This document shows positions 2,344 through 44,913 of a DNA stretch of 64,000 bases, in pieces. The DNA is from Argopecten irradians (lineage: Eukaryota). Below the pieces are notes generated by a model. That model saw only the letters and a list, made by a program, of their open reading frames with translations. It did no database searches and was not told where the DNA came from. A program made the translations under genes and the position numbers. The DNA is taken from contig NC_091134.1 of assembly GCF_041381155.1 (NCBI RefSeq), positions 61,118,902-61,182,901 on the forward strand, given 5' to 3'. How positions within the stretch are numbered: position 1 is the stretch's first letter; every line of letters starts with the position of its first letter.

Positions 2344-3310
2344 TTAGCTCACCTGGCCCGAAGGGCCGGTGAGCTTATGTCATGGCGCGGCGTCCGTCGT
2401 CCGTCCGTCCGTCCGTCCGTCAACATTTCCTTTAAATCGCTACTAGTCATAGAGTTCTGAATGGAATGTAACCAAATTTGGCCACAAACATCCTTGGGGG
2501 AAGGGGAACAGAACTTGTATAAATTTTGGCTCTGGTCCCCCGGGGGCAGGAGGGGCGGGGCCCAATAGGGGTAATAGAGGTAGATCCTTTAAATCGCTAC
2601 TAGTCATAGAGTTCTGAATGGAATGTAACCAAATTTGGCCACAAACATCCTTGGGGGAGGGGGAACAGACCTTGTATAAATTTTGGCTCTGACCCCCCGG
2701 GGGCAGGAGGGGCAGGGCCCAATAGGGGTAATAGAGGTAAATCCTTTAAATCGCTACTTGTCATAGAGCTCTGAATGGAATGTAACCAAATTTGGCCACA
2801 AACATCCTTTGGGGAAGGGGAACAGAAATTGTATAAATTTTGGCTCTGGTCCCCCAGGGGCAGGAGGGGCGGGGCCCAATAGGGGAAATAGAGGTAAATC
2901 CTTTAAATCGCTACTAGTCATAGAGTTCTGAATGGAATGTAACCAAATTTGGCCACAGACATTCTTTGGGGAAGGGGAACAGAACTTGTATAAATTTTGG
3001 CTCTGACCCCTGGGGGCAGGAGGGGCGGGGCCCAATAGGGGAAATAGAGGTAAATTCTTTAAATCGCTACTAGTCATAGAGTTCTGATGGATTGTAACCA
3101 AATTTGGCCATAAACATCCTTGGAAGAAGGGGAACAGAACTTGTATAAATTTTGGCTCTGACCCCCTGGGGGCGGGAGGGGTGGGGCCCAATAGGGGATT
3201 TAGAGGTTAATATCAAAATTCCTTCAGAAAAGAAACAATGAACCTGTATTCAGAACATTACTTGGCATTACAAACCAGGTGAGTGATACAGGCCCTCTGG
3301 GCCTCTTGTT
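2344..3310 (+). mobile_element. Rolling-circle-like (Helitron/Helentron-type, non-autonomous) element copy 1. It has a hairpin head, a (GTCC)n spacer, 5 monomers of a 157-bp satellite (family A) and a conserved ~105-bp tail ending GGCCCTCTGGGCCTCTTGTT. It lies in CHMP1 intron 2.
   Basis: The head TTAGCTCACCTGGCCCGAAGGGCCGGTGAGCTTATG is a 14-bp-stem hairpin with a GAA loop. It recurs at 20636 and 25948. The tail recurs at 27906-28019 and 44815-44913. There are no long TIRs and no obvious target site duplication. Confidence 0.55.
2429..3210 (+). repeat. Satellite family A: 157-bp monomer, 5 copies.
   Basis: The anchor CCTTTAAATCGCTAC recurs at 2429, 2586, 2743, 2900 and ~3055. Confidence 0.9.
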
Positions 3311-8209: not shown

Positions 8210-9215
8210 ATCATGCACCGTCCGTTGTCGTGCACCGTGCGCCGTGCGCCTGTAGCATTCTTGGATGAAGGGCTACCAAGTTTGTTCAAATGAATGACCT
8301 TGACCTTCATTCAAGATCACAGGGGTCAAATAGGCTAAAATCTTGTAAACAACTTCTTTTGAATATCTAAGAGGTCCAGAGACCTGATATTGGGCCCCTG
8401 ACATACTGGGATGATGGCCTATTAAGTTTGTTCAAAGCAATGGCCTTGATCTTCATTCAAGGTCACAGGGGTCAAAAAGGCTAAAATCTTCAAACAACTT
8501 CTTCTCAAGAACCAGAAGGCCCAGGGTATTGATATTGGGCCTGTAGCATGCTGGGATGAAGGGCTTCCAAGTTTGTTCAAATGAATGACCTTGACCTTCA
8601 TTTAAGGTCACAGGGGTCAAATAGGCTAAAATCCTTTAAACAACTTCTTTTCAAGAACCAGAAGGCTCAGGGTTCTCATATTGGGCCTGTAGCATGCTGG
8701 GATGAAGGGCTACCAAGTTTGTTCAAATAAATGACCTTGACCTTCATTTAAAGTCACAGGAGTCAAATAGGCTGAAATCCTTCAAACAACATCTTATGAA
8801 TAACTAAGAGGTCTAGAGACCTGATATTGGGCCCCTGACACGCTGGTATGAAGCGCTATCAAGTTTGTTCAAATCAATGACCTTGATCTTCATTCAAAAG
8901 ATTTCTTGAGAATAACTAGGAGGCCTAGAGACCTGATATTGGGCATGTGACCTGCTGGGATGAAGAGCTACCAAGTTTGTTCTAATGAATGACCTTGACC
9001 TTCATCCAAGGTCACAGGGGTCAAATAGGCTAAAATCTTGAAATTACTTTATTGGGCCTGTGACATGCTAGGATGAAGGGCTACCATATTTGTTTTAAAA
9101 AAATGACCTTGATCTTCATTCAGATCACAGGGATCAAAATGGTTAATATATTTAAATGACTATGTTGTATTGTGCCAATAGTCAGATGACCGTTAAGGCC
9201 CATGGGCCTCTTGTG
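8210..9215 (+). mobile_element. Helentron-like element copy 2 (5'-truncated: no hairpin, only a remnant of the GTCC-type spacer). It carries ~6 monomers of the 147-bp satellite family B and a tail ...GACCGTTAAGGCCCATGGGCCTCTTGTG.
   Basis: Same satellite family as 20770-25905. Its tail shares the GGCCC-N3-GGGCC palindrome and CTTGT terminus with the family A tails. Confidence 0.5.
8255..9130 (+). repeat. Satellite family B: ~147-bp monomer, ~6 copies.
   Basis: GGGCTACCAAGTTTGTTCAAATGAATGACCTTGACCTTCATTCAAGGTCACAGGGGTCAAA recurs every ~147 bp. Confidence 0.9.
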
Positions 9216-10309: not shown

Positions 10310-13300
10310 GTTGTTCCTTTTCAGTTAAGACAAAAACAATTTAACTTCGCGCCATTTCTTGCTTATGATTTGACAATAAAGCACATGGATATCAAAATAC
10401 AATGTACAGTTTAGATTCCACTATGATCCTCCTCCGATAGATTGAATTAACGTGTAGCTTGGGGAAAGTTATCCACAGTTGATTGGTATGACGTTTGAGC
10501 GAATAAAAGTCAATATGATAATAAAACTCAAACATACGATGACTGGGGATGTAGAATGATATACACATTCAAATTTTATATCTAATAATTCTAATTTTTA
10601 TACTGTTATTTATGTACAAATTGTATACATACGTAAATGTCGTGAATATACTTGTTCTGGCAGATGTTGATATGTAATGACTATGATGAGAATAGGTCTT
10701 GAAATATCGATTCAGATGGATAAAGTAACACTGGAGATACAGGGGTGATGCTGTTCTCAAATGGGACATATACATGTATTAGGTTTCGCTATACACGTAG
10801 GTAGCATTAATTATACTGTATGTCCTTATTGGTTTTTGCTTAGGTAAACACTGTACTGTTTTCTAGTTGACGAATGAAGACGACGAAATACAACTTTGAT
10901 ACACGACGAAGAAAAACTTAAATCAAGATTTTATAGTTTGAAATTATCATTTTCCGTAAAACAAATAAACCATGTACTTCGTTACCATCTATGTGGTTAT
11001 GTACAGTACGAGGTCGATATTGTGACGATGAGTTCTGATATATCTGTGTACATTTAGTTGGATTGCGACTAAAATGTATAAAAGTCATCTTGTAGGCATG
11101 TTTTAATGATATTAAAGTGTTAGAAAATGTCTGCTTTTTGGATAGATATTTTCATAAAAATGACATTGTCTAGACCAGAGGGGGATATCAATATATAGGG
11201 CACTGGAATGGATCCTTGGGGAACTCCCGATTTGATTTCTATGGTATTACAAGAATATTAAAGGCCCATAACCTTTCCGGGCAAAAAATAAAGGTTTCTT
11301 AAAAAACATTAATAACGTCAGAAAATGCATACCGATGACCTAAGATAAGGTTACGACACCAAACATATGCAAGATTTCCTGCGTAATAAATGAAAACAGC
11401 GGAAAGGAAAGTCAATTCGCTGTTTTGCCGTCTGGCGCAGTGATAGTCAACTACCGCGTGGTATTTAGGACGACGGCGGGAAACATAATACGACCCGCGT
11501 TATGAAAATTAACATTTAAATTTATTTTAATCAAATCGTTCAGAAGGTGATGATCAATGTAGTATTAACGGTTAGTTAATACTTTTTAAGACTCTAAAAA
11601 ATTATCGATCTTGTTTTACATTCCCATTTTAAAAATTAAAAGCCATTTCGGAAAGGAAGTGGGCCTTTAACAAAAGTAATCTGATTAAAATACATATCCT
11701 TAGACAACCACTACGTTCAATAGAATACAGATCATTATAACCACCCTGACAACATTCCGTAAGGGGTCATGTTCTTATGATCTCTATACCACCTTTACTT
11801 CAAATCAAATACATTTCCTCACATTGCTACATCAGTTGAAAATGCCATTTCGTCCCAGTGTACATATACTATTAGCTTTCTTATGCTCTTTGGGCGAGAT
11901 GACTACGTACACGAAAATAATTATGGGAGGTTTTTTTAAACTATTTCGTCACCTGAAATTCACTTCAAGATTCTGCAGGTGGCAATTTGATTGTCCATTT
12001 CCAAAGGTCACCTGTACATGACCCCTAATGGGATGTTGTCAGATCCTCTTATCAAACGTAGTGATAATAATCAGATTGGAATAGAAGAAGTTGATAACAA
12101 TTTCAGAAGAGACATGTATGTAGTTTCATTTTCTGAAGTAATAGCTTATGATTGAATAGCAATATAAATTTATCAGAGACATAGATTATTTAATTTACTA
12201 TCTAAATCTCTGTACATTGTATATATAAAGATAATATTTGTGCAAACTTCTCAAACTGAAATTTAGTTCTTTACACGCAACCAATGAAGATTGTTGAGGT
12301 GTCGCGAATATCAAAATGTTCAAAATTTACCTTCGATAACGCCAAAATAAGCTAGGCCTACACCAATTTACACAGAATATGGTTTTCTCTCTACTACTGT
12401 TACTGAAGGATCGATATTTATTATACAATAAGAACCCTATATTTAACATAAAGTCCTCCTTCAAGTCAATATTTCATTAATTAAAATTAGCATTAAGGAT
12501 GTATTCTTCTGAGGTTTCAGTCCCGTTGAAGTCTCGTTTCAACATAGATCAAAGAAGTTATGAGATTTTCAAATATAATTTATCAGTATCTGTAGCAAGT
12601 TGCCAGATGCAAATTTTGTCAAAAAATTACATTTCTATTTTTAGTAGATTTTTTTATACGGGGATTTTAAGAAATGGCCCATTTGGCGGCCATTTTGAAA
12701 TTGTGTCTTTTTTCGCTTCAAATAGAGCAACAGTTTTACCATTTTTTACTGAAATTGTTTTTACTTAAATCATCACTGCGCCAGCATTTTTAGCTGTATT
12801 TAGCTAATTTTTGCTGTAAATCGTTACTAGGTTCGTAGTAATTAAAATATTGAGCATTAATATGTTAAACGATAGACTTTTGTGACTTTATTTTTATATT
12901 TAATGGTAATTTGGGAACTTTTATTTTTTACTCTAAAATACTGAAAAATAACAGAAATTCAAATGGGGCAAAAAAGTAAGCACACGGACCCCCAATTTTT
13001 CTTCCTGATTTAGAAAGAACAACTGTTTCCCTATTGATATGCAAAATAATAGCAAAAGTTTAATACCAAAACTTTTTCTATAAAGGGTTAAATTTGGCAA
13101 AAATGGCTGAAAATGGTGCATTTTGTAGCACAAAATTAAGGGGTAGGGGTAGCATATATTGTTATTCTGAGAAAAATATTAGTCTAATTGATCAAAACTG
13201 GTATATTTTTAAAGAAGACTACTAGAAAATGAATTCTACAAACATTCATACATATCAAACACCTCATTAGGAAATTATGGCTTTAATCTCTATCTTATAT

Positions 13301-20274: not shown

Positions 20275-20769
20275 GTAAGTGTACAAAAATCACAATATAC
20301 GGCAAAGAGATATCATGATAGATAAAAAATAAAATCATGATGAAAAAAAATTAATGATAAACTTGACGTATCAAAAAGTAACATAATCTGATAATAAATC
20401 AGAGTTAATTTATGATATTATACATTCAGAATGTTAATGAAGCAAATTAATGTATCCAGCTAAAATATTTCAAAAATATTTTTAATCACCCCAAGGATTG
20501 GATGTAATACCTACTAAAATGCTCTACATTTACATTTGGATCAAGTAAGTAATTATGTTTATGTGAAGTCAAACTCTGGTTTGGGCTTGGCATATTGCAT
20601 TAGAAATTATTGCTAAGAAATTGTACTGATATTATTAGCTCACCTGCCCGAAGGGCAAGTGAGCTTATGCTATGGTGCAGCGTCCAGCGTCTGTCCGTCG
20701 TCCGGCCGTCCGTCCGTCTGTCCGGCCGTCCGGCGACAACTTTTCCATTTAAACAATTTCTTCTCCAAA

Positions 20770-23700
20770 ACTTGGAGACCTAGAGTCCTGAAATTTGACT
20801 TATAGCATGCTGGGATCAAGGGCTACCAATTTTGTTCGAATGAATGACCTCGACCTTCCTTCAAGGTCACAGGGGTCAAATAGGCTGAAATATCTTGTTA
20901 AGACTTCTGCTTCATAACCAAGAGGCCTAGAGACCTGATACTTGGCATGTAACATGTTGGGATGAAGGGCTACCAAGCTTGTTTCATTCAAGGTCACGGG
21001 GGTCAAATAGGCTAAAATCTTTAAACAACTTCTTCTTAATAACCAAGAGACCTAGGGACCTGATATCAGGCCTGTGACATGCTGGGATCAAGGGCTACCA
21101 AGTTTGTTCAAATGAATGACCTTGACCTTCATTCAAGGTCACAGGGGTCAAAAAGGCTAAAATCTTTAAACGACTTCTTCTTAATAACCAAGAGGCCTAG
21201 GGACCTGATATTAGGCCTGAGGCATGCTGGGATCAAGGGCTACCAAGTTTGTTCAAATGAATGACCTTGACCATCATTCAAGGTCACAGGGGTCAAAAAA
21301 GGCTAAAATCTTTTAAAGATTTCTTCTTAATAACCAAAGAGCCTAGGAACCTGATATTAGGCCTGTGACATACTTGGATCAAGGGCTACCAAGTTTGTTC
21401 AAATGAATGACCTTGACCCTCATTCAAGGTCACAGGGGTCAAAAAGGCTTAAATCTTTAAACGACTTCTTCTTAATAACCAAGAGGCCTAGGGACCTGAT
21501 ATCAGGCCTGTGACATGCTGGGATCAAGGGCTACCAAGTTTTGTTCAAATGAATGACCTTGACCTTCATTCAAGGTCACAGGGTAAAAAAGGCTAAAATC
21601 TTTAAAGGACTTCTTCTTTATAACCAAGAGGCCTAGGGACCTGATATTGGGCCTGAGGCATGCTGGGATCAAGGGCTAACAAGTTTGTTCAAATGAATGA
21701 CCTTGATCTTCATTCAAAGTCACAGGGGTCAAAAAGGCTTAAATCTTTAAACGACTTCTTCTTAATAACCAAGAGGCCTAGGGACCTGATATCAGGCCTG
21801 TGACATGCTGGGATCAAGGGCTACCAACTTTGTTCAAATGAATGACCTTGACCTTCATTCAAGGTCACAGGGGTAAAAAAGGCTAAAATCTCTAAACGAT
21901 TCTTCTTAATAACCAAGAGGCCTAGGGACCTGATATTGGGCCTGAGGCATGCTGGGATCAAGGGCTACCAAGTTTGTTCAAATGAATGACCTTGATCTTC
22001 ATTCAAAGTCACAGGGGTCAAAAAGGTTAAAATCTTTAAACGACTTCTTCTTAATAACCAAGAGGCCTAGGGACCTGATATTAGGCCTGTGACATGCTGG
22101 GATCAAGGGCTACCAAGTTTGTTCAAATGAATGACCTTGACCATCATTCAAGGTCACAGGGGTCAAAAAAGGCTAAAATCTTTTAAAGATTTCTTCTAAA
22201 TAACCAAAGAGCCTAGGAACCTGATATTAGGCCTGTGACATACTTGGATCAAGGGCTACCAAGTTTGTTCAAATGAATGACCTTGACCCTCATTCAAGGT
22301 CACAGGGGTCAAAAAGGCTTAAATCTTTAAACGACTTCTTCTTAATAACCAAGAGGCCTAGGGACCTGATATCAGGCCTGTGACATGCTGGGATCAAGGG
22401 CTACCAAGTTTTGTTCAAATGAATGACCTTGACCTTCATTCAAGGTCACAGGGTAAAAAAGGCTAAAATCTTTAAAGGACTTCTTCTTTATAACCAAGAG
22501 GCCTAGGGACCTGATATTGGGCCTGAGGCATGCTGGGATCAAGGGCTAACAGGGGTCAAAAAGGTTAAAATCTTTAAACGACTTCTTCTTAATAACCAAG
22601 AGGCCTAAAGACCTGATATTAGGCCTGTGACATGCTGGGATCAAGGGCTACCAAGTTTGTTCAAATGAATGACCTTGACCTTCATTCAAGGTCACAGGGG
22701 TCAAAAATGCTAAAATCGTTAAACAATTTCTTTTTAATAACCAAAGAGACTAGGAACCTGATATTAAGCCTTTGACATACTGGGATCAAGCTACAAAGTT
22801 TGTGCAAATGAATGACCTTGACCTTCATTCAAGGTCACAGGGGTCAAAAAGGCTAAAATCTTTAAATGACTTCTTCTTAATAACCAAGAGGCCTAGGGAC
22901 CTGATATCAGGCCTGTGACATGCTGGGATCAAGGGCTACCAAGTTTGTTCAAATGAATGACCTTGACCTTCATTCAAGGTCACAGGGGTCAAAAAGGCTA
23001 AAATCTTTAAACGATTTCTTCTTAATAACCAAAGAGCCTAGGAACCTGATATTAAGCCTGTGACATACTGGGATCAAGGGCTACAAAGTTTGTTCAAATG
23101 AATGACCTTGACCTTCATTCAAGGTCACAGGGGTCAAAAAGGCTAAAATCTTTAAATGACTTCTTCTTTATAACCAAGAAGCCTAGGGACCTGATATTGG
23201 GCATGTGACATGCTGGGATCAAGGGCTACCAAGTTTGTTCAAATGAATGACCTTGACCTTCATTCAAGGTCACAGGGGTCAAAAAGTCTAAAATCTTTAA
23301 ACGACTTCTTCTTAATAACCAAGAGGCCTAGGGACCTGATATTGGGCCTGAGGCATGCTGGGATAAAGGGCTACCAAGTTTGTTCAAATGAATGACCTTG
23401 ATCTGCATTCAAGGCTAAAATCTTTAAACAGTTTCTTCTTAATAACCAGACAGCCTAGGGACCTGGTATTGGGCCTGTGGCATGATGAAATCAAGGGCTA
23501 CCAAGTTTGTTCAAATGAATGACCTTGATCTTCATTCAAGGTTACAGGGATAAAAAAAGGCTTAAATCTTTAAACGACTTCTTCTTAATAACAAAACAGC
23601 CTAGGGACCTGATATTAAGCCTGTGACATACTGGGATCAAGGGCTACAAAGTTTGTTCAAATGAATGACCTTGACCTTCATTCAAGGTCACAGGGGTCAA

Positions 23701-25905
23701 AAAGGCTAAAATCTTTAAATGACTTCTTCTTTATAACCAAGAGGCCTAGGGTCCTGATATTGGGCATGTGACATGCTGGGATCAAGGGCTACCAAGTTTG
23801 TTCAAATGAATGACCTTGACCTTCATAAAGGACTTCTTCTTTATAACCAAGAGGCCTAGGGACCTGATATTGGGCCTGAGGCATGCTGGGATCAAGGGCT
23901 ACCAAGTTTGTTCAAATGAATGACCTTGATCTTCATTCAAAGTCACGGGGGTCAAAAAGGCTTAAATCTTTAAACGACTTCTTCTTAATAACCAAGAGGC
24001 CTAGGGACCTGATATCAGGCCTGTGACATGCTGGGATCAAGGGCTACCAACTTTGTTCAAATGAATGACCTTGACCTTCATTCAAGGTCACAGGGGTAAA
24101 AAAGGCTAAAATCTCTAAACGATTCTTCTTAATAACCAAGAGGCCTAGGGACCTGATATTGGGCCTGAGGCATGCTGGGATCAAGGGCTACCAAGTTTGT
24201 TCAAATGAATGACCTTGATCTTCATTCAAAGTCACAGGGGTCAAAAAGGTTAAAATCTTTAAACGACTTCTTCTTAATAACCAAGAGGCCTAAAGACCTG
24301 ATATTAGGCCTGTGACATGCTGGGATCAAGGGCTACCACGTTTGTTCAAATGAATGACCTTGACCTTCATTCAAGGTCACAGGGGTCAAAAAGGCTAAAA
24401 TCGTTAAACAATTTCTTTTTAATAACCAAAGAGACTAGGAACCTGATATTAAGCCTTTGACATACTGGGATCAAGCTACAAAGTTTGTGCAAATGAATGA
24501 CCTTGACCTTCATTCAAGGTCTCATGGGTCAAAAAGGCTAAAAGTCTTTAAATGACTTCTTCTTAATAACCAAGAGGCCTAGGGACCTGATATCAGGCCT
24601 GTGACATGCTGGGATCAAGGGCTACCAAGTTTGTTCAAATGAATGACCTTGACCTTCATTCAAGGTCACAGGGGTCAAAAAGGCTAAAATCTTTAAATGA
24701 CTTCTTCTTTATAACCAAGAGGCCTAGGGACCTGATATTGGGCATGTGACATGCTGGGATCAAGGGCTACCAAGTTTGTTCAAATGAATGACCTTGACCT
24801 TCATAATGACCTTGACCTTCATTCAAGGTCACAGGGGTCAAAAAGTCTAAAATCTTTAAACGACTTCTTCTTAATAACCAAGAGGCCTAGGGACCTGATA
24901 TTGGGCCTGAGGCATGCTGGGATCAAGGGCTACCAAGTTTGTTCAAATGAATGACCTTGATCTTCATTCAAGGTCACAGGGGTATAAAAGGCTAAAATCT
25001 TTAAACAGTTTCTTCTTAATAACCAGACAGCCTAGGGACCTGGTATTGGGCCTGTGGCATGATGAAATCAAGGGCTACCAAGTTTGTTCAAATGAATGAC
25101 CTTGATCTTCATTCAAGGTTACAGGGATAAAAAAAGGCTTAAATCTTTAAACGACTTCTTCTTAATAACAAAACAGCCTAGGGACTTGATATTGGGCCTG
25201 TGGCATGCTGGGATTAAGGGCTACCAAATTTGTTCAAATGAATGACCTTGACCATCATTCAAGGTCATAGGGGTCAAAAAGGCTAAAATCCTTTAAACGA
25301 CTTCTTCTTAATAATCAAGAGGCCTAGGGACCTGATATTGGGCTTGTGGCATGCTGGAATCAAGGGCTACCAAGTTTGTTCAAATGAATGACCTTGATCT
25401 TCATTCAAGGTCACAGGGATCAAAAAGGCTAGAATCTTTAAACGTCTTCTTCCTAATAACCAAACAGCCTAGGGACCTGGTATTGGGCATGTGGCATGCT
25501 GGGATCAAGGGCTACCACGTTTGTGCAAATGAATGACCTTGACCTTCATTCAAGGTTACAGGGGTCAAAAAGGCTAAAATCTTTAAAAGACTTCTTTATA
25601 CCAAAACAGTCTTGGGACCTGATATTGGGCCTATGGCATGCTGGGATCAAGGGCTACCAAGTTTGTTCGAATGAATGACCTTGACATCATTCAAGGTCAA
25701 AGGGGTAAGATAGGCTAAAATCTTTAAACAACTTCTTAATAACCAAGAGGTCTTGAGACCTGTTATTGGGCATGTGACATGTTGGGATGAAGCGCTACAA
25801 AGTTTGTTCAAATGAATGACCTTGACTTTCATTCAAGGTCACAGGGGTCAAATAGGCTAAAATCTTTAAATGACTCCTTTTTAATAACCAAGAGGCAAAG
25901 AGGCC
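20770..25905 (+). repeat. Satellite family B: ~147-bp monomer, ~35 copies, with local deletions (~22540, ~23400, ~23820) and a small duplication (~24790).
   Basis: Same monomer as 8255-9130. The ORFs MLGSRATKFVQMNDLDL... in the ORF track are repeat artefacts. Confidence 0.9.
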
Positions 25906-25947: not shown

Positions 25948-28019
25948 TTAGCTCACCTGGCCCGAAGGGCCGGTGAGCTTATGTCATGGCGCGGCGTCCG
26001 TCGTCCGTACGTTGTCCATCCGTCATCCGTCTGTCAACATTTCTTTAAATCGCTACTAGTCATAGAGTTCTGCATGGATTGTAACCAAATTTGGCCACAA
26101 GCATCCTTGGGGGAGGGGGAACAGAACTTGTATAAATTTTGGCTCTGACCCCCCGGGGGCAGGAGGGGAGGGGCCCAATAGGGGAAATAGAGGTAAATTC
26201 TTTAAATCGCTACTTGTCCTAGAGTTCTGCATGGATTGTAACCAAAATTAGCCATAAACATATCTTTGGGGGAAGGGGAACAGAACTTGTATAAATTTTG
26301 GCTCTGATCCCCCAGGGGCAGGAGGGAGGGGGCCCAATAGGGGAAATAAAGGTAAATCCTTTAAATCGCTACTGGTCATAGAGTACTGAATGGAATGTAA
26401 CCAAATTTGGCCACAAACATCCTTGGGGGAAGGGGAACAGAACTTGTATAAATTTTGGCTCTGGCCCCCCGGAGGCTGGAGGGATGGGGCCCAATAGGGG
26501 AAATAGAGGTAAATCCTTTAAATCGCTACTAGTCATAGAGTTCTGCATGGAATGTAACCAAATTTGGCCAGAAATATCCTTTGGAGATTAGAACTGAGTT
26601 TGTATAAATTTTGGCACTGGTCCCGGGGCGCAGGAGGGGCGGGGCCCAATAGGGGAATTATAGGTAAATCCTATAAATCGGTACTTGTCCTATAGTTCTG
26701 CATGGATTATCACCAAATTTGTCCACAAACATCCTTGGGGGTAGGAGAACAGAACTTGTATAAATTTTGGCTCTGACCCTCCGGCGACAGGAGGGGGAGG
26801 AGCCCAATAGAGGAAATAGTGGTAAATCCTTTAAATCGCTACTTGTCCTAGACTTCTGCATGGATTGTAACCAAATTTGGCAACAAACATCCTTGGGGGA
26901 AGGGGAACAGAACTTGTATAAATTTTGGCTCTGACCCCCCGGGGGCAGGAGGGGCGGGGCCCAATAGGGGAAATAGAGGTAAATTCTTTAAATCGCTACT
27001 TGTCCTAGAGTTCTGCATGGATTGTAACCAAAATTAGCCACAAACATCCTTGGGGGAGGGGGAACAGAACTTGTATAAATTTTGGCTCTGACTCCCCAGG
27101 CAGGAGGGGCGGGGCCCAATAGGGGAAATAGAGGTAAATTGTTTAAATTGCTACTTGTCCTAAAGTTCTGCATGGATTGTAACCAAAATTAGCCATAAAC
27201 ATATCCTTGGGGGATGGGGAACAGAAGTTGTATAAATTTTGGCTCTGATCCCCCAGGGGCAGGAGGGGCGGGGCCCAATAGGGGAAATAAAGGTAAATCC
27301 TTTAAATCGCTACTGGCCATAGAGTTCTGAATGGAATGTAACCAAATTTGGCCACAAACATCCTTGGGGGAAGGGGAACAGAACTTGTGTAAATTTTGGC
27401 TCTGGCCCCCCGGAGGCTGGAGGGGTGGGGCCCAGTAGGGGAAATAGAGGTAAATCCTTTAAATCGCTACTAGTCATAGAGTTCTGCATGGAATGTAACC
27501 AAATTTGGCCAGAAATATCCTTGGGAGATTAGAACTGAGTTTGTATAAATTTTGGCACTGGTCCGGGGGCGCAGGAGGGGCGGGGCCCAATAGGGGAATT
27601 ATAGGTAAATCCTATAAATCGGTACTTGTCCTAGAGTTCTGCATGGATTGTAACCAAATTTGGCCATAAACATCCTTGGGGGTAGGAGAACAAAACTTGT
27701 ATAAATTTTGGCTCTGACCCTCCGGGGACAGGAGGGGGTGGAGCCCAATAGAGGAAATAGTGGTAAATTCTATAAATCGCTACTTGTCCTAGAGTTTTGC
27801 TTGGATTGTGACCAAATTTGGCCATAAACATCCTTGTGGGAAGGAGAACAGAACTTTGGCTCTGACCCCCTGGGGACAGGAGGGGTGGGGCGCAATAGGG
27901 GACTTAGATGATAATATTAAAATTCCTTCAGAAAAGAAACAATGAACCTGTATTCAGAACATTACTTGGCATTACAAACCAGGTGAGCGATACAGGCCCT
28001 CTTGGCCTCTTGTTGTTAA
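25948..28019 (+). mobile_element. Helentron-like element copy 4: hairpin head, (GTCC)n spacer, ~12 monomers of satellite family A and the conserved tail ending GGCCCTCTTGGCCTCTTGTT.
   Basis: The head at 25948-26040 is near-identical to 2344-2428. Array is 26041-27905. Tail 27906-28019 is near-identical to 3205-3310. Confidence 0.55.
26041..27905 (+). repeat. Satellite family A: 157-bp monomer, ~12 copies.
   Basis: Same monomer as 2429-3210. The minus-strand PAPRG-rich ORFs are artefacts. Confidence 0.9.
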
Positions 28020-35560: not shown

Positions 35561-35697
35561 ATTTGAAAGATGTGAAAGATGTCTTGGACCCTATGTCAAA
35601 GGTCAAACCTGGACTGGTGGCTGATGGGAAGGAGGTCAATCCAGTAGAACTAGAGAAACTGGATGTGTTTGCTAAACTAATGGACTTGGTGGCTGAG
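35561..35697 (+). CDS. PARP4: PARP4 exon 13: (N)LKDVKDVLDPMSKVKPGLVADGKEVNPVELEKLDVFAKLMDLVAE. The last 24 nt and the donor seed the downstream 51-bp satellite.
   Basis: Acceptor ttatag|AT and donor GAG|gtatgt. LDVFAKLMDLVAE followed by VKVFQVY (exon 14) aligns to human LEDVHIKGRIIDTVAQ followed by VIVFQTY. Any later satellite copy offers an identical in-frame donor, so the true donor could be a later copy. Confidence 0.65.
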
Positions 35698-36968
35698 GTA
35701 TGTAGTAAACTGAATGTCTTGACTAAACTAATGGACTTGGTGGCCGAGGTATGTAGTAAACTGGATGTGTGTTGACTAAACTAATGGACTTGGTGGCCGA
35801 GGTATGTAGTAAACTGAATGTGTTGACTAAACTAATGGACTTGGTGGCCGAGGTATGTAGTAAACTGGATGTGTTGACTAACTAATGGACTTGGTGGCCG
35901 AGGTATGTAGTTAACTGGATGTGTTGACTAAACTAATGGACTTGGTGGCTGAGGTATGTAGTAAACTGGATGTGTTGACTAAACTAATGGACTTGGTGGC
36001 TGAGGTATGTAGTTAACTGAATGTGTTGACTAAACTAATGGACTTGGTGGCTGAGGTATGTAGTAAACTTTGTTTTGGCTAAACTAATGGACTTGGTGGC
36101 CGAGGTATGTAGTAAACTGAATGTGTTGACTAAACTAATGGACTTGGTGGCCGAGGTATGTAGTAAACTGAATGTGTTGACTAAACTAATGGACTTGGTG
36201 GCTGAGGTATGTAGTAAATTGGATGTGTTGACTAAACTAATGGACTTGGTGGCCGAGGTATGTAGTAAACTGAATGTGTTGGCTAAACTAATGGACTTGG
36301 TGGCCGAGGTATGTAGTAAACTGAATGTGTTGACTAAGCTAATGGACTTGGTGGCTGAGGTATGTAGTAAACTGGATGTGTTGACTAAACTAATGGACTT
36401 GGTGGCCGAGGTATGTAGTAAACTGAATGTGTTGGCTAAACTAATGGACTTGGTGGCTGAGGTATGTAGTAAACTTTGTTTTGGCTAAACTAATGGACTT
36501 TGTGGCTGAGGTATGTAGTAAACTGATTGTTTTGGCTAAACTAATGGACTTAGTGGCAGAGGTACGTAGTAAACTTTGTTTTGGCTAAACTAATGGACTT
36601 GGTGGCTGAGGTATGTAGTAAACTTTGTTTTGGCTAAACTAATGGACTTGGTGGCCGAGGTATGTAGTAAACTTTGTTTTGGCTAAACTAATGGACTTGG
36701 TGGCTGAGGTATGTAGTAAACTGTATGTGTTGGCTAAACTAATGGACTTGGTGGCTGAGGTATGTAGTAAACTGTATGTGTTGGCTAAACTAATGGACTT
36801 GGTGGCAGAGGTATGTAGTAAACTGGATGTGTTGACTAAACTAATGGACTTGGTAGCTGAGGTATGTAGTAAACTGAATGTGTTGACTAAACTAATGGAC
36901 TTGGTGGCTGAGGTATGTAGTAAACTGGATGTGTTGACTAAACTAATGGACTTGGTGGACGAGGTATG
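35674..36968 (+). repeat. 51-bp satellite, ~25 copies (aaactaatggacttggtggcYgaggtatgtagtaaactgRatgtgttgRct). It is derived from the 3' end of PARP4 exon 13 plus its GTATGT donor. The unit is 17 codons and fully open in the exon frame.
   Basis: The first copy is exon 13 itself. The ORF-track proteins are KLMDLVAEVCSKLNVLT reiterated. Each unit carries a GAG|gtatgt donor-like site. Confidence 0.9.
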
Positions 36969-36970
36969 TA

Positions 36971-39842
36971 CAGTACCTGAACCGTTTAACGTTCCCAGCC
37001 TAACGCAAACGCAACGCAAAAAAATAGTTCGTTAGCTAACGCTAACGATTGCTAACGCTAACGATTAACGATTAACGATAAACGATTAACGCAATACCGG
37101 CTAACGATTAACGATTAACGCAAAACGCAAAACGATCGGCTATGATTAACCGGAAATACCGTTGTTATAATCACGGACACGGCTTGACGGTAAATGAATT
37201 ACGGATCTTGATGTTTTGAAATACAAACGAAAGTACAAGAAAAACTGGAGTATGTTCGGGATTAAAGTTTCTGTATATCATATAAACATTTGCCTATGAA
37301 AACTATATGGACACGATGAAGTCAAAGACGACAGTACTCGATGCAAAGTTTCCATGTACAAAAATGAATGACATGTGCAACTGTATGTGTGGAGAAAGAA
37401 TGGTATTATTCTAAAGTGTCATATTTACCCGGTATTTTAAGAAATAACAAATTGTTACAGCATCTCTTTAGTGATAATCACACAATGAAGTCAAACACGA
37501 CTGTACTCGATACGAAGTTTCCACTTCACACGTACGTTTACAAATTACTTGTACAACCGTATGTATTAAGAGAGAATTGTGTTATTCTAAGTGTCATATT
37601 TGTCCGACATTTTAAGAAATAACAAACAAATTGTTACAACAACACTTTATTGATAATATTACCGTCACAATGTCATAACTTTAGTGAAGCGATCAGGCGT
37701 ATACTGGTACATGTACTTTAAATGGAAACATTTTCACACATTTAAAATGCTGTAAATCAAATTTCCATCTATATGTTTGATTTATATTATCGATGTGTCA
37801 TAACTCAACAATGGTAATAATTAACATCTTATAGTGTTTCTCGCATCAATCACAAGTTTCAGGGTTTTTTCCAGATTGTCGAAAGGCTCTTCCGCTTATC
37901 ATGGAAAATTGTATTCTCGGAATATTTGTTTCATAACGGATTACACGCTGTATATAATTAGGGTGTGCATTCATAAAAGCTCATTGCTTACAATTGACTA
38001 GGCATCGATTTTAGGGTCGCACATGTACATTTACAAATACACGTACATACGCCATAGCTAGTGTAATAAAGATTGAACATTTGAATTCGTGTTTCGCCAT
38101 TTGCAGTTCTCTCATTTTATAGTTCATGCATATAATACAGATATAAAGAACGGAAATATTTCACTTCCAGTTATCTATATTCAAATTAAGTCAAATTATG
38201 CATAATCATTGATGACAACAACGATGAAGATAGTGATGCACATGCATACATGTATGTACACTGAAGATAACTGTAAAATTGCATTGCGACAATTTTCTAC
38301 GTATATTTGTAACTGGCGTAAGAAATATAGTTATTTGATCACATTTCACACCAAGCAACTCTTCAATTTACAGTTTAAACAAATTAAATATTCATACAAT
38401 GTATAAGTGTAAGCTAATTCATTCCAACGTAATCTATAGGAAAGCATATTGCCCACATCAAAACTTTGAAATACGACAGTATATATATGTCCGTGAAATG
38501 TACTGTCACAGTGTATATTTTTGTACGGGGCACAGGTAAGTTGGGTATAAAGTTAATCTCCCTCCCAAGAAGGGAAAGTGTTAATTACAGGTGAACTCCG
38601 CCCGTGGCCAGCTACAGGGGGTCGACACAAGGTAACACCAGTCGTGACCTATATACCTGTACAGGTAAAATACCCGTGCGCGTCACGCTGGGAATTGAAA
38701 AGATTCCAGGTACAAATAACAACGAACACATGTGAGAAGGTGCCCGTGACTGTCCAGTTTTTATTGATATGAGCTTAAAGGTATACCCGTGCCTGATTTG
38801 ACACGCGTACAGTACGTGTGAAGGCTTTAATACAATGTAACGTACCCCTGCACAGTTCGAATTCTCTACACGTGTTAACATGTAGTTGTAGGTATACTCG
38901 TACATTACAAACATTTACATCATTTTATTCCATTTTCATATATATATGTAGATACAAGTACTAATTAATTGCGTTTAAAAATATGTACATGTAAATGCCA
39001 AATCTCACCTATTCCCCGTGTTCAAACTCGTCATGATTTTTAAATTTCACGAATTTATTTACAAATCTCCCGAGTCTTTTTTAGCGTTCTTCATACATTG
39101 ATGAAATTTAACATAACAAGAAGAATATGATGCAGCGTGTCTGTAATAACATTTTTATATTTTTTATTATCTGTTTTAGCTATATTCTTGTGTAATCTTT
39201 CAGCTGTCGTGGATTCTTTCTAAAATAATGCTTTTGACATTAATATTCTGTAAGACAGTTTCGTTAATATTTGAATTGCTTTCGCAGAAATCATAGTAAC
39301 TACAAACATATATATGATATATGTTTCTGATAATAATAATAAGAAGTTTTGAAATGTCATTTAAATACGAGTATTTCAGAACGTTTTCACGGATACATAT
39401 GTAGGAGCGTACGTCATGTATATGCGATCTTGTTACTGTACATATTTTTATTTCAACCACATCTAACAAACATATATACATCCAAAAGAGATATAAAATG
39501 CAATACAATACACTTTATTCATATTATTTTTTTTTCATAGATGTTATGATAATCGCTTCTTCACGAAGCGGTAAACGTAATATCATATCCGGATCGTCAA
39601 AGCATCTCACCGGCATTTGGTTCTATTTTTAGTGGCTAACGTTAGCGGAAGTGGGTCCTGCTAACGATTAACGCAAACGATTTCAAACGCAAACGATTGT
39701 AAACGCAACTAACGATTAACGATTGCTAACGCAAACGATAACGATTAACGATAAACGATTGCTAACGCTAACGATTGCTAACGGAAATAACGCAAACGCA
39801 AACGAAACGCAAATTTGGGAACGTTAAACGGTTCAGGTACTG
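36971..39842. mobile_element. Tc1/mariner-like non-autonomous DNA transposon (2872 bp) inserted into the 51-bp satellite. It has 27-bp perfect TIRs CAGTACCTGAACCGTTTAACGTTCCCA, a TA target site duplication and subterminal (TAACG)n-like direct repeats at both ends.
   Basis: The satellite unit gaggtatgTAgtaaactg is split as gaggtatgTA[element]TAgtaaactg. The TA is at 36969-36970 and 39843-39844. No intact transposase ORF. An internal ~150-bp x2 direct repeat lies at 37316-37640. Confidence 0.7.
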
Positions 39843-40370
39843 TAGTAAACTGTATGTGTTGGCTAAACTAATGGACTTGGTGGCCGAGGTATGTAGTAAA
39901 CTGTATGTGTTGGCTAAACTAATGGACTTGGTGGAAGAGGTATGTAGTAAACTGAATGTGTTGACTAAACTAATGGACTTGGTGGCTGAGGTATGTAGTA
40001 AACTTTGTTTTGGCTAAACTAATGGACTTGGTGGCAGAGGTATGTAGTAAACTGGATGTGTTGACTAAACTAATGGACTTGGTGGCTGAGGTATGTAGTA
40101 AACTTTGTTTTGGCTAAACTAATGGACTTAGTGGCCGAGGTATGTAGTAAACTTTGTTTTGGCTAAACTAATGGACTTAGTGGCCGAGGTATGTAGTAAA
40201 CTTTGTTTTGGCTAAACTAATGGACTTGGTGGCTGAGGTATGTAGTAAACTTTGTTTTGGCTAAACTAATGGACTTGGTGTCTGAGGTATGTAGTAGGCT
40301 AAAATGTATTTGTTGACTAAACTAAGGACTTGATGGCCGAGGTACATAGTAAACTGGATGTGTTGGCAGA
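39843..40370 (+). repeat. Continuation of the 51-bp exon-derived satellite (~10 copies, degenerating at the 3' edge).
   Basis: Same unit and phase as 35674-36968, resuming exactly at the interrupted position. Confidence 0.9.
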
Positions 40371-40718: not shown

Positions 40719-40943
40719 GTGAAGGTATTTCAAGTTTACAAAAACAACAGTGCTGAAATGTTAGAAGGGAAGTATGTGTTCCCACTTGACGAGATGGCGG
40801 CTGTGTGTGGATTTGAGGCCTACATCAATGACAAGCATGTGGTTGGAGAAGTGAAGGAGAAAGAGACGGCGCACAAGGAGTACAAAAAGGCCATCAGTGA
40901 AGGTCATGGTGCCTACCTCATGGACCAGGACGAGGAGTCTCCG
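40719..40943 (+). CDS. PARP4: PARP4 exon 14 (VIT domain): VKVFQVYKNNSAEMLEGKYVFPLDEMAAVCGFEAYINDKHVVGEVKEKETAHKEYKKAISEGHGAYLMDQDEESP.
   Basis: Acceptor cttttcag|GTG and donor CCG|gtaggt. It is near-identical to human VIVFQTYTNKSHVPIEAKYIFPLDDKAAVCGFEAFINGKHIVGEIKEKEEAQQEYLEAVTQGHGAYLMSQDAP. Confidence 0.9.
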
Positions 40944-41019
40944 GTAGGTCCGGGGCTGGGAGTGTCTTTGTCTGTAATTATGGCTTCCATTCCATGGCTG
41001 ATAGGGAGGCCTATCTTAA

Positions 41020-42050
41020 AGTTTTTACATCAGCGTTATATCTGGTTGTAATCTGTATTTTACATCAGTGTTGTATCTGGTTGTAATCTGTATTTTACAT
41101 CAGCATTATATCTGGATGTAATCTGTATTTTACATCAGCGTTGTATCTGGTTGTAATCTTTATTTTACATCAGCATTATATCTGGATGTAATCTGTATTT
41201 TACATCAGCATTATATCTGGATAATGTAATTTGTATTTTACATCAGCGTTGTATCTGGTTGTAATCTGTATTTTACATCAGCATTATATCTGGATGTAAT
41301 CTGTATTTTACATCACTATTATATCTGGTTGTAATCTGTATTTTACATCAGCGTTGTATCTGGTTTTAATCTGTATTTTACATCAGCATTATATCTGGAT
41401 GTAATCTGTATTTTACATCAGCGTTGTATCTGGTTGTAATCTGTATTTTACATCAGCGTTGTATCTGGTTGTAATCTGTATTTTACATCAGCGTTGTATC
41501 TGGTTGTAATCTGTATTTTACATCAGCGTTGTACCTGGTTGTAATCTGTATTTTACATCAGCGTTGTATCTGGTTGTAATCTGTATTTTACATCACCGTT
41601 ATATATCTGGTTGTAATCTGTATTTTACATCAGCGTTGTATCTGGTTGTAATCTGTATTTTACATCACTGTTATATCTGGTTGTAATCTGTATTTTACAT
41701 CAGTGTTGTATCTGGTTGTAATCTGTATTTTACATCAGCGTTGTATCTGGTTGTAATCTGTATTTTACATCAGCGTTATATCTGGTTGTAATCTATATTT
41801 TACATCACTGTTATATCTGGTTATATCTGGTTGTAATCTGTATTTTACATCAGCGTTGTATCTGGTTGTAATCTGTATTTTACATCAGCGTTGTATCTGG
41901 TTGTAATCTGTATTTTACATCAGCGTTATATCTGGTTGTAATCTGTATTTTACATCAGCGTTGTATCTGGTTGTAATCTGTATTTTACATCACCGTTGTA
42001 TCTGGTTGTAATCTGTATTTTACATTAGCATTGTATCTGATTATAATCAG
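41020..42050 (+). repeat. 35-bp satellite (gtaatctgtattttacatcagcgttgtatctggtt), ~29 copies. It starts ~80 bp after the PARP4 exon 14 donor.
   Basis: Direct tandem repeat with R/Y point variants. Confidence 0.9.
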
Positions 42051-42665
42051 TATAACTCAAAACCTTATAATGATACTACACCTAATTTGATGTTTTAGTT
42101 TCTTTGAATTATCTTCAGTTTTAATGTAAACTTTACCACCAAAACTTCTTTCTCAATATTGCTTTTCAAGTCCAAAGTTTAAAGGTCAAGGTCACTGTTA
42201 CTAAAATAGAAAATCATGTTCTGTTTATTAACTGATTGGCAAGTTATTATATTTTTTTGTGGAATTCTTGTCCTTATACTATCTGTCTATACTGATGAAT
42301 GGTTCAATAGTTTCACTCTGAATTGAATTAATAATTTTTAAGTGCAACTAGCGCAGACACAGAAGTATTTTAGACATGAAAATCACTGTGGTATAATAAA
42401 TAATGGAATTTATCATATGCACATACATACAGTATCCATATTTGCAATATTCTTATTGATATTTTAGCGTGAGAATTCATGGATATATGTATTCAGCATC
42501 ATTTTTCAATAGCTAGCTTTTAACACTTTGTGGTGAAGCTACCTTGAGTTAGGCCATCTTTAGATGAGTGATTGCTCTATTGTGTATCATGGCCTTTGTA
42601 CATGACAGATAGGGAATCTCATCCGATTAATTTGTTTAACCTGAACTTTGTATGTTTGTGAACAG

Positions 42666-44002: not shown

Positions 44003-44913
44003 TAATATTTGGGAAATAGAGGTAAATCCTATAAATCCCTACTTGTCCTTGAGTTCTGTATGGATTGTAACCAAATTTGGCCACAAACATCCATGGGGGG
44101 AAAGGGAACAGAACTTGAATAAATTTTGGCTCTGATCCCCCGGGGGCAGGAGGGGCAGGACCCAATAGGGGAAATAGAGGTAAATCCTTTAAATTGCTAC
44201 TTGTCAAAGAATTCTACATGGATTGTAACTGAATTTGGCCAGAAACATCCTTGAGGAAAGGGGAATAGAGTTTGTATAAATTTTGGCTCTGACCCCACAG
44301 GGGGCATGAGGGGCAGGGCCCAATTGTGGACATAGAGGTAAATCCTTTAAATTGCTACTTGTCATATAGTTCTACATGGATTGTAACCGAATTTGGCCAG
44401 AAACATCTTTGAGGAAAGGGGAATAGAGTTTGTATAAGTTTTGGCTCTGAACCACCAGGGGGCATGAGGGGCAGGGCCCAATTGGGGACATAGAGGTAAA
44501 TCCTTTAGATTATTACTTGTCATAGAGTTCTGCATGGATTGTAACCAAATTTGGCCAGAAGCATCCTTTGGGTAAGGGGGTTAGAGCTTGTATAAATTTT
44601 GGCTCTGACCCCGGGGGCAGGAAGGGCGGGGCCCAATAGAGGAAATAGAAGTTGGTTCTTTAAATCGCAACTAGTCATAGAGTTCTGCATGGATTGTTAC
44701 CAAATTTGACCAGAAACATCTTTGGGGGAAGGGGATTAGAGTTTGTATAAATTTTGGCTCTGATCCCTTTGGGGGAAGGATGTGTGGGGCTTGATAGGGA
44801 AAATAGAGGTAAATATTTAAATTCCTTTAGAAAAGAAACAATGAATCTGTATTAAGAACATAACTTGGCATTACAAACCAGATGAGTGATACAGGCCCTC
44901 TGGGTCTCTTGTT
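44003..44913 (+). mobile_element. Helentron-like element copy 5 (5'-truncated, no head): ~5 monomers of satellite family A plus the conserved tail ...GGCCCTCTGGGTCTCTTGTT, in PARP4 intron 16.
   Basis: Monomers and tail are homologous to 2429-3310 and 26041-28019. Confidence 0.5.

Follow-up and report, generated by a model that had tools for sequence, protein, structure and literature searches.

Within a 64-kb stretch of the Argopecten irradians genome (contig NC_091134.1, positions 61,118,902 to 61,182,901; hereafter the window), we found a 2,872-bp element (positions 36971-39842 of the window) that interrupts a satellite derived from the end of an exon. It is an ordinary non-autonomous transposon with terminal inverted repeats (TIRs) and a duplicated TA at its target, with one unusual architectural detail, which lies in the orientation of its subterminal repeats. 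It is likely a single copy, with its structure intact, of a class II (TIR) DNA transposon that is non-autonomous and entered one unit of the already existing satellite by a cut-and-paste reaction. The features that define its ends and its target are the following.

35696-36968, + strand: left part of the host satellite, ~26 units of 49-51 bp, each composed of the exon 3' end and the 5' splice site
36969-36970, no strand: left TA of the duplicated target, a single TA in the paralogous empty sites
36971-36997, + strand: left TIR, 27 bp, CAGTACCTGAACCGTTTAACGTTCCCA
39816-39842, - strand: right TIR, 27 bp, perfect, recognized by its complementarity to the left arm
39843-39844, no strand: right TA of the duplicated target, recognized from the same empty sites
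39845-40367, + strand: right part of the host satellite, ~10 units, with the unit phase continuous across the insertion

The junction sequence (36969-39844) reads gaggtatgTA[CAGTACCTG...CAGGTACTG]TAgtaaactg. The element begins with CAGTACC, its termini are 5'-CAGT...ACTG-3', and a TA flanks it on both sides. A repeat finder returned two arms of 29 nt (36969-36997 and 39816-39844) that are 100% complementary and correspond to the 27-bp TIR plus the palindromic TA. Allowing up to three mismatches, the TIR matches exactly two places in the window, where none is expected from 100 dinucleotide-preserving shuffles.

The host array provides its own controls. Tandem Repeats Finder delimited an array with a period of 49-51 bp at 35656-36970 that resumes at 39835-40367. 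After deletion of the element and one TA, this array was divided into 36 units, only one of which is interrupted, and the interrupted unit itself becomes an exact 51-bp satellite unit. The uninterrupted site, GAGGTATGTAGTAAACT, with a single TA, is found in 30 other units, and the doubled form (TATA) in none of them. These 30 units are paralogous empty sites and directly show a duplication of two bases; the empty allele at this locus should read ...GGTGGACGAGGTATGTAGTAAACTGTATG... The first-pass annotation had described a clean insertion with a TA duplication, perfect 27-bp TIRs and restoration of the satellite phase, and both the 29/29 complementarity of the arms (TA included) and the reconstructed 51-bp unit agree with that description. 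It is extremely improbable that no transposon insertion took place and that the structure arose instead by chimeric assembly or by the capture of filler DNA in a repair event, with fortuitous terminal palindromy. Satellites misassemble easily and there is a single copy to inspect, but a perfect 27-bp inverted repeat that coincides exactly with the two junctions, an exact 2-bp duplication and perfect phase restoration are unlike the products of misassembly or filler capture.

The satellite into which the element was inserted is composed of units that join the last 34 nt of an exon coding for part of a VIT domain to the 17 nt that open the following intron. Since the segment equivalent to KLDVFAKLMDLVAE occurs only once in the aligned homologues, the satellite represents a tandem amplification of the exon end and the intron start, and the exon-derived nature attributed to it in the first-pass annotation holds. 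Among the duplicated splice donors, the insertion point falls in the 26th, at positions +6/+7. The 5' splice site (GAG|GTATGT) is preserved in every unit, and the array is also an open reading frame (ORF) of 17 amino acids per unit (MAKLMDLVAEVCSKL...), giving ORFs of 118-137 amino acids. If a downstream donor were used, the PARP4-like protein would gain in-frame 17-amino-acid repeats where its VIT domain starts. Exact protein look-ups with the satellite ORF and with another repeat ORF gave no match.

Between its ends, the element lacks coding capacity. The longest ORFs are of 100-102 amino acids, and a Pfam search of the six-frame translations (E≤1) found no family that reached the curated threshold; two matches with E=0.02-0.07 were attributed to chance. 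Neither the 100-amino-acid ORF nor a concatenate of the 32 stop-to-stop segments of at least 38 amino acids had a homologue in a collection of 5.8 billion proteins; exact protein look-ups of two of the element ORFs gave no match, and Rfam and tRNA searches of the element were equally negative. No transposase remnant was detected by ORF analysis, six-frame Pfam search or protein homologue search. With no ORF above ~100 amino acids, no Pfam domain and no protein homologue, the element is confirmed as non-autonomous, as the first-pass annotation had held. The features of the interior are the following.

37137-39636, no strand: AT-rich non-coding interior (GC 0.33), according to ORF, Pfam, Rfam and tRNA scans, without similarity to the rest of the window
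37311-37660, + strand: internal tandem duplication of ~175 bp, with 76% identity overall and 79-89% in ungapped blocks
38520-38900, + strand: more G+C-rich segment that contains eight AGGT[AG] sites together with a ~20-bp degenerate motif, GGTA..ACCCGTGC

The AGGT[AG] sites of the G+C-rich segment are on the sense strand of the host gene, and only one more is found in the remaining 2,452 bp of the element. One of the eight is a perfect splice-donor consensus (ACAG|GTAAGT), and the degenerate motif is repeated ~6 times in the segment.

The combination of a perfect TIR, a short target duplication and exact restoration of the target is the signature of a DDE-type cut-and-paste reaction and, given the absence of coding capacity, the element would have been mobilized in trans. 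A transposase supplied in trans would have bound the 27-bp TIRs and excised the element from its donor site, after which the 3' ends would have been joined to target DNA cut at a TA with a stagger of 2 nt; repair of the gaps would have left the TA duplicated. The enzyme was most likely a DD(E/D) transposase of the IS630-Tc1-mariner (ITm) group, either Tc1-like or pogo-like.

Insertion at TA and ends of the form CAGT...ACTG are typical of pogo-like elements. The same combination is a recognized hallmark of Tc1-like elements (PMC4054914), and Repbase assigns non-autonomous DNA elements by their target-site duplication and terminal features (PMC4455052). Our element has both the TA duplication and the 5'-CAGT...ACTG-3' termini, and we consider it probable that it belongs to the ITm group, an assignment made by structure and not by demonstrated relationship. 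The first-pass annotation had placed it in the Tc1/mariner superfamily; the target and the termini sustain that placement, but the subterminal repeats, which are in direct orientation, depart from the symmetric architecture of Tc1/mariner elements.

Other superfamilies were considered and rejected. An hAT element would need an 8-bp (5-8 bp) duplication, and here the 8-bp flanks (GGTATGTA vs. TAGTAAAC) differ and the unit gains only 2 bp. The same 2-bp gain is found where PIF/Harbinger (TWA) or piggyBac (TTAA) insertions would be expected to leave longer duplications, and no such flanks fit the TIR boundaries. At 2,872 bp, the element is also beyond the size of a miniature transposable element with inverted repeats (MITE), for which a limit of <~800 bp has been used (PMC6004678).

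Several observations weigh against the reading as a non-autonomous ITm element. The first concerns the two subterminal arrays, composed of 37 units based on (T/A)AACG(A/C), predominantly TAACGAT heptamers and AAACGC/TAACGC hexamers.

37001-37136, + strand: left subterminal array, composed of 16 units (5-25 bp each) that are mostly TAACGAT heptamers and share the + orientation
39637-39813, + strand: right subterminal array, composed of 21 units that are oriented like those of the left array

These are the (TAACG)n-like subterminal repeats that had been noticed in the first-pass annotation. Between the two ends, the arrays are in direct and not inverted orientation, with 37 forward units vs. ~2 reverse ones. 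TAACGAT occurs six times at each end and AACGCA six times at the left and seven at the right, and their reverse complements (ATCGTT and TGCGTT) are absent from both. Apart from the TIR, all the significant matches between the left and the right ends are plus/plus, including a 45-bp stretch with 95.6% identity; hence, the element has polarity. The two ends are equivalent as regards the 27-bp TIRs, and it is the arrays of 130-180 bp, whose binding by the transposase is putative, that are direct. The ends of Tc1/mariner elements are normally equivalent and symmetric, with binding sites inverted between them, and long arrays next to the ends are found more typically in hAT, CACTA, P or PIF elements. 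A rare reversal of the motif within the arrays, at 37027-37048, forms a small palindrome (TCGTTAGC/GCTAACGA) that was also picked up as a hairpin.

The remaining points on this side are of a different nature. The sequence tgTA is found at both junctions, the tg in front of the left TA being also the last two bases of the element, and from a single copy this microhomology makes duplications of TA, GTA or TGTA (2-4 bp) formally possible. A size of 2.9 kb is large for a Tc1/mariner derivative without a transposase remnant. No second copy of the element was found in the 64-kb window, nor was an autonomous partner, the ORFs of at least 130 amino acids in the window being translated repeats only. 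Exact TIR 23-25-mers had no matches in metagenomic, prokaryotic-genome or viral contigs.

As for the length of the duplication, TA is the only one that leaves the inverted repeat terminal and symmetric at both ends. This bears on the possibility of a non-autonomous CMC (CACTA/Mirage/Chapaev) element, with duplications of 2-4 bp and subterminal arrays bound by an accessory protein, which we regard as very unlikely. The dense subterminal arrays resemble the architecture of CACTA elements such as En/Spm. Furthermore, CMC duplications are of 2-4 bp (PMC4482050), those of animal CACTA elements of 2 bp (PMC6004678), and the junctions described here are compatible with 2-4 bp; CMC elements have also been found in all the molluscs surveyed (PMC10294476). 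Nevertheless, a duplication of 3 or 4 bp would make the inverted repeat non-terminal on one side, and the termini of this element are CAG...CTG, as opposed to the invariant CAC...GTG of the group (PMC6004678).

The polarity of the arrays can be read in different ways. They may act as accessory binding sites and thereby give the two ends different functions, by analogy with Ac/Ds, P or En/Spm. Alternatively, they may be a minisatellite carried along by the element, or a single minisatellite of a once-short element that was later split by the acquisition of ~2.5 kb of DNA. No inverted repeat or duplication was found at the inner boundaries of the arrays that would indicate a nested TIR insertion splitting one AACG array, and an origin of this type is speculation.

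An undescribed lineage of TA-targeting TIR elements, in which the arrays would be read by a Myb/SANT-, BED- or THAP-type domain and the Tc1-like termini would be convergent, must also be weighed, and we consider it unlikely. Myb-type domains bind YAACKG, and the transposase of Ac binds subterminal AAACGG motifs. The AACG core of the arrays, also present in the TIR itself (AACGTT, AAACGG), recalls both types of sites, and the nearly complete absence of reverse units and the long direct stretch shared by both ends would fit such a lineage. On the other hand, there is no positive evidence for a protein of this kind, membership in the ITm group sufficiently explains the TA and the CAGT, and direct arrays could be one minisatellite split by internal sequence. 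It is quite unlikely, in our opinion, that unidirectional arrays and an accessory Myb/BED-like reader have made the ends non-equivalent, which would represent an architecture new at the family level inside ITm or else a separate lineage with convergent Tc1-like termini. A non-autonomous ITm element thus remains the explanation that we favor.

The time of arrival of the element can be approached from the array itself. Variant units are found on both sides of the insertion, namely a 49-bp CTTTGTTTTGGC type and an GTATGTGTTGGC type (the latter in units 21, 22, 26, and 27). Since these variants lie on both sides and only 1 of the 36 units is interrupted, the array would have expanded and acquired its variants before the element came in, unless there was exchange across the inserted element, and the insertion would postdate most of the array formation. 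The first-pass annotation had proposed a recent event that followed the expansion of the satellite. The order of events agrees with the data, but recency is only loosely bounded, given that a perfect pair of 27-bp TIRs limits the divergence between arms to ~<11% (95% bound, exp(-27K)).

The CpG content offers an independent hint. The observed/expected ratio is 1.53 for the whole element (interior, 1.24; arrays, 2.6-2.9), against 0.5-1.0 in non-satellite 2.5-kb windows of the host sequence and 0.32 in the whole window. The undepleted CpG fits a brief stay of the element in a genome that loses CpG; alternatively, the element could be unmethylated or its sequence constrained. A second region with a relatively high CpG ratio (~1.0) is located at 9-13 kb.

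The search for relatives was extended in several ways. No other pairs of the type TA+CA[G/C]T...A[C/G]TG+TA within 8 kb, with at least 17 of 24 matching bases, were found in the window besides the element itself. In public contigs, a shorter 18-mer (TA plus 16 nt) gave 17 and 10 hits, but these were dismissed as chance, since the rest of the TIR matched at ≤5 of 11 positions, AACG arrays were absent and the hits were mostly in bacterial contigs. A bacterial, phage or plasmid origin was likewise discarded by the absence of blastn matches, and a literature search for the TIR string retrieved only unrelated primer matches.

With regard to the host gene, two exons frame the satellite and the element.

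35561-35697, + strand: genuine exon, start of the VIT domain, ending ...NPVELEKLDVFAKLMDLVAE, and source, through its 3' end and splice donor, of the satellite
40719-40946, + strand: next exon, core of the VIT domain, PARP4-like gene, with matches to PF08487/PF13757

The first "unit" of the array is the real exon (~35561-35697), followed by the splice donor GTATGT. The peptide obtained by joining both exons matches VIT/VIT_2-domain proteins that their sources name poly[ADP-ribose] polymerase, the flanking VIT exons matching only other species, with ≤92% amino acid identity, and in one homologous locus an exon coding for the PARP domain lies immediately upstream. Because the next VIT exon follows at 40719-40946, the element sits in an intron of a PARP4-like gene. 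Two related PARP4-like loci (L001 and L002) share only the exons, with 73-83% nucleotide identity (blastn), and neither the satellite nor the element is present in either of them. In L001, from an unrelated species, the homologous VIT exon is followed ~1.2 kb downstream by a mariner-type transposase (ORF fragments with HTH_48 and Transposase_1 at 11648-12715). It has no sequence in common with our element, and its proximity to the exon is probably a coincidence.

Other repeats are abundant in the window. The next intron of the gene contains a 35-bp tandem repeat (41023-42053, 29 copies, 90% identity) that begins ~75 bp past the VIT exon. Microsatellites of the (CGTC)n type adjoin tandem arrays of 145-157 bp at 2391-3211, 8248-9167, 20688-25896, 26043-27856, and 44011-44823, and resemble, by description only, the satellite-carrying non-autonomous Helentrons of oysters (PMC7492417), a resemblance that points to a bivalve or another mollusc as the host. 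A satellite with a period of ~49 bp extends from 45692 to the end of the window (64000; >18 kb), 97% identical in its first 6 kb and decaying distally, and contributes to the very low CpG ratio of the window.

Animal genomes commonly contain non-autonomous TIR elements that duplicate TA, and the wider significance of this one is small. Nonetheless, the array itself supplies 30 paralogous empty sites, so that the 2-bp duplication is proven independently of population data, which makes the insertion a textbook case. If the family is multi-copy, its polar arrays and undepleted CpG would reasonably suggest a candidate transposon family recently active in, or acquired by, the host. In addition, the insertion could serve as a presence/absence marker for dating the last rearrangements of the satellite in the intron of the PARP4-like gene.

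Among known systems, the animal CACTA/CMC elements (e.g., ENS1_Cis; PMC6004678) have in common with this one the 2-bp duplication and the repeat-rich subterminal regions, but their ends are CAC...GTG instead of CAG...CTG. ISL2EU elements, of the PHIS superfamily, also duplicate 2 bp, but theirs is AT within an AATT target (A|AT|T; PMC4482050), and they were discarded as candidates given that here the duplicated dinucleotide is TA in TGTAGT (TG|TA|GT). A TIR starting with CAG and numerous short motifs near the ends that have AAACG as their core are reminiscent of hAT elements of the Ac/Ds type, which differ in their duplications of 8 bp (5-8 bp), here ≤4 bp and most likely 2 bp. The closest likeness is with Tc1-like and pogo-like non-autonomous elements, which show the TA duplication, TIRs of ~20-30 bp starting with 5'-CAGT (PMC4054914) and no coding capacity. 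Unlike them, the element described here has arrays in the same direction instead of symmetric IR/DR sites, and its 2.9 kb greatly exceed the size of typical mariner- or Tc1-derived MITEs. The pogo-like Tc2 of Caenorhabditis elegans, reportedly described by Ruvolo et al. in 1992 as inserting at TA, with perfect 24-bp TIRs and degenerate subterminal direct repeats, encodes its own transposase, and the sequence of its repeats is not known to be related to that of our arrays. By analogy, Tc2 would be a precedent, within the same superfamily, for subterminal repeats in direct orientation.

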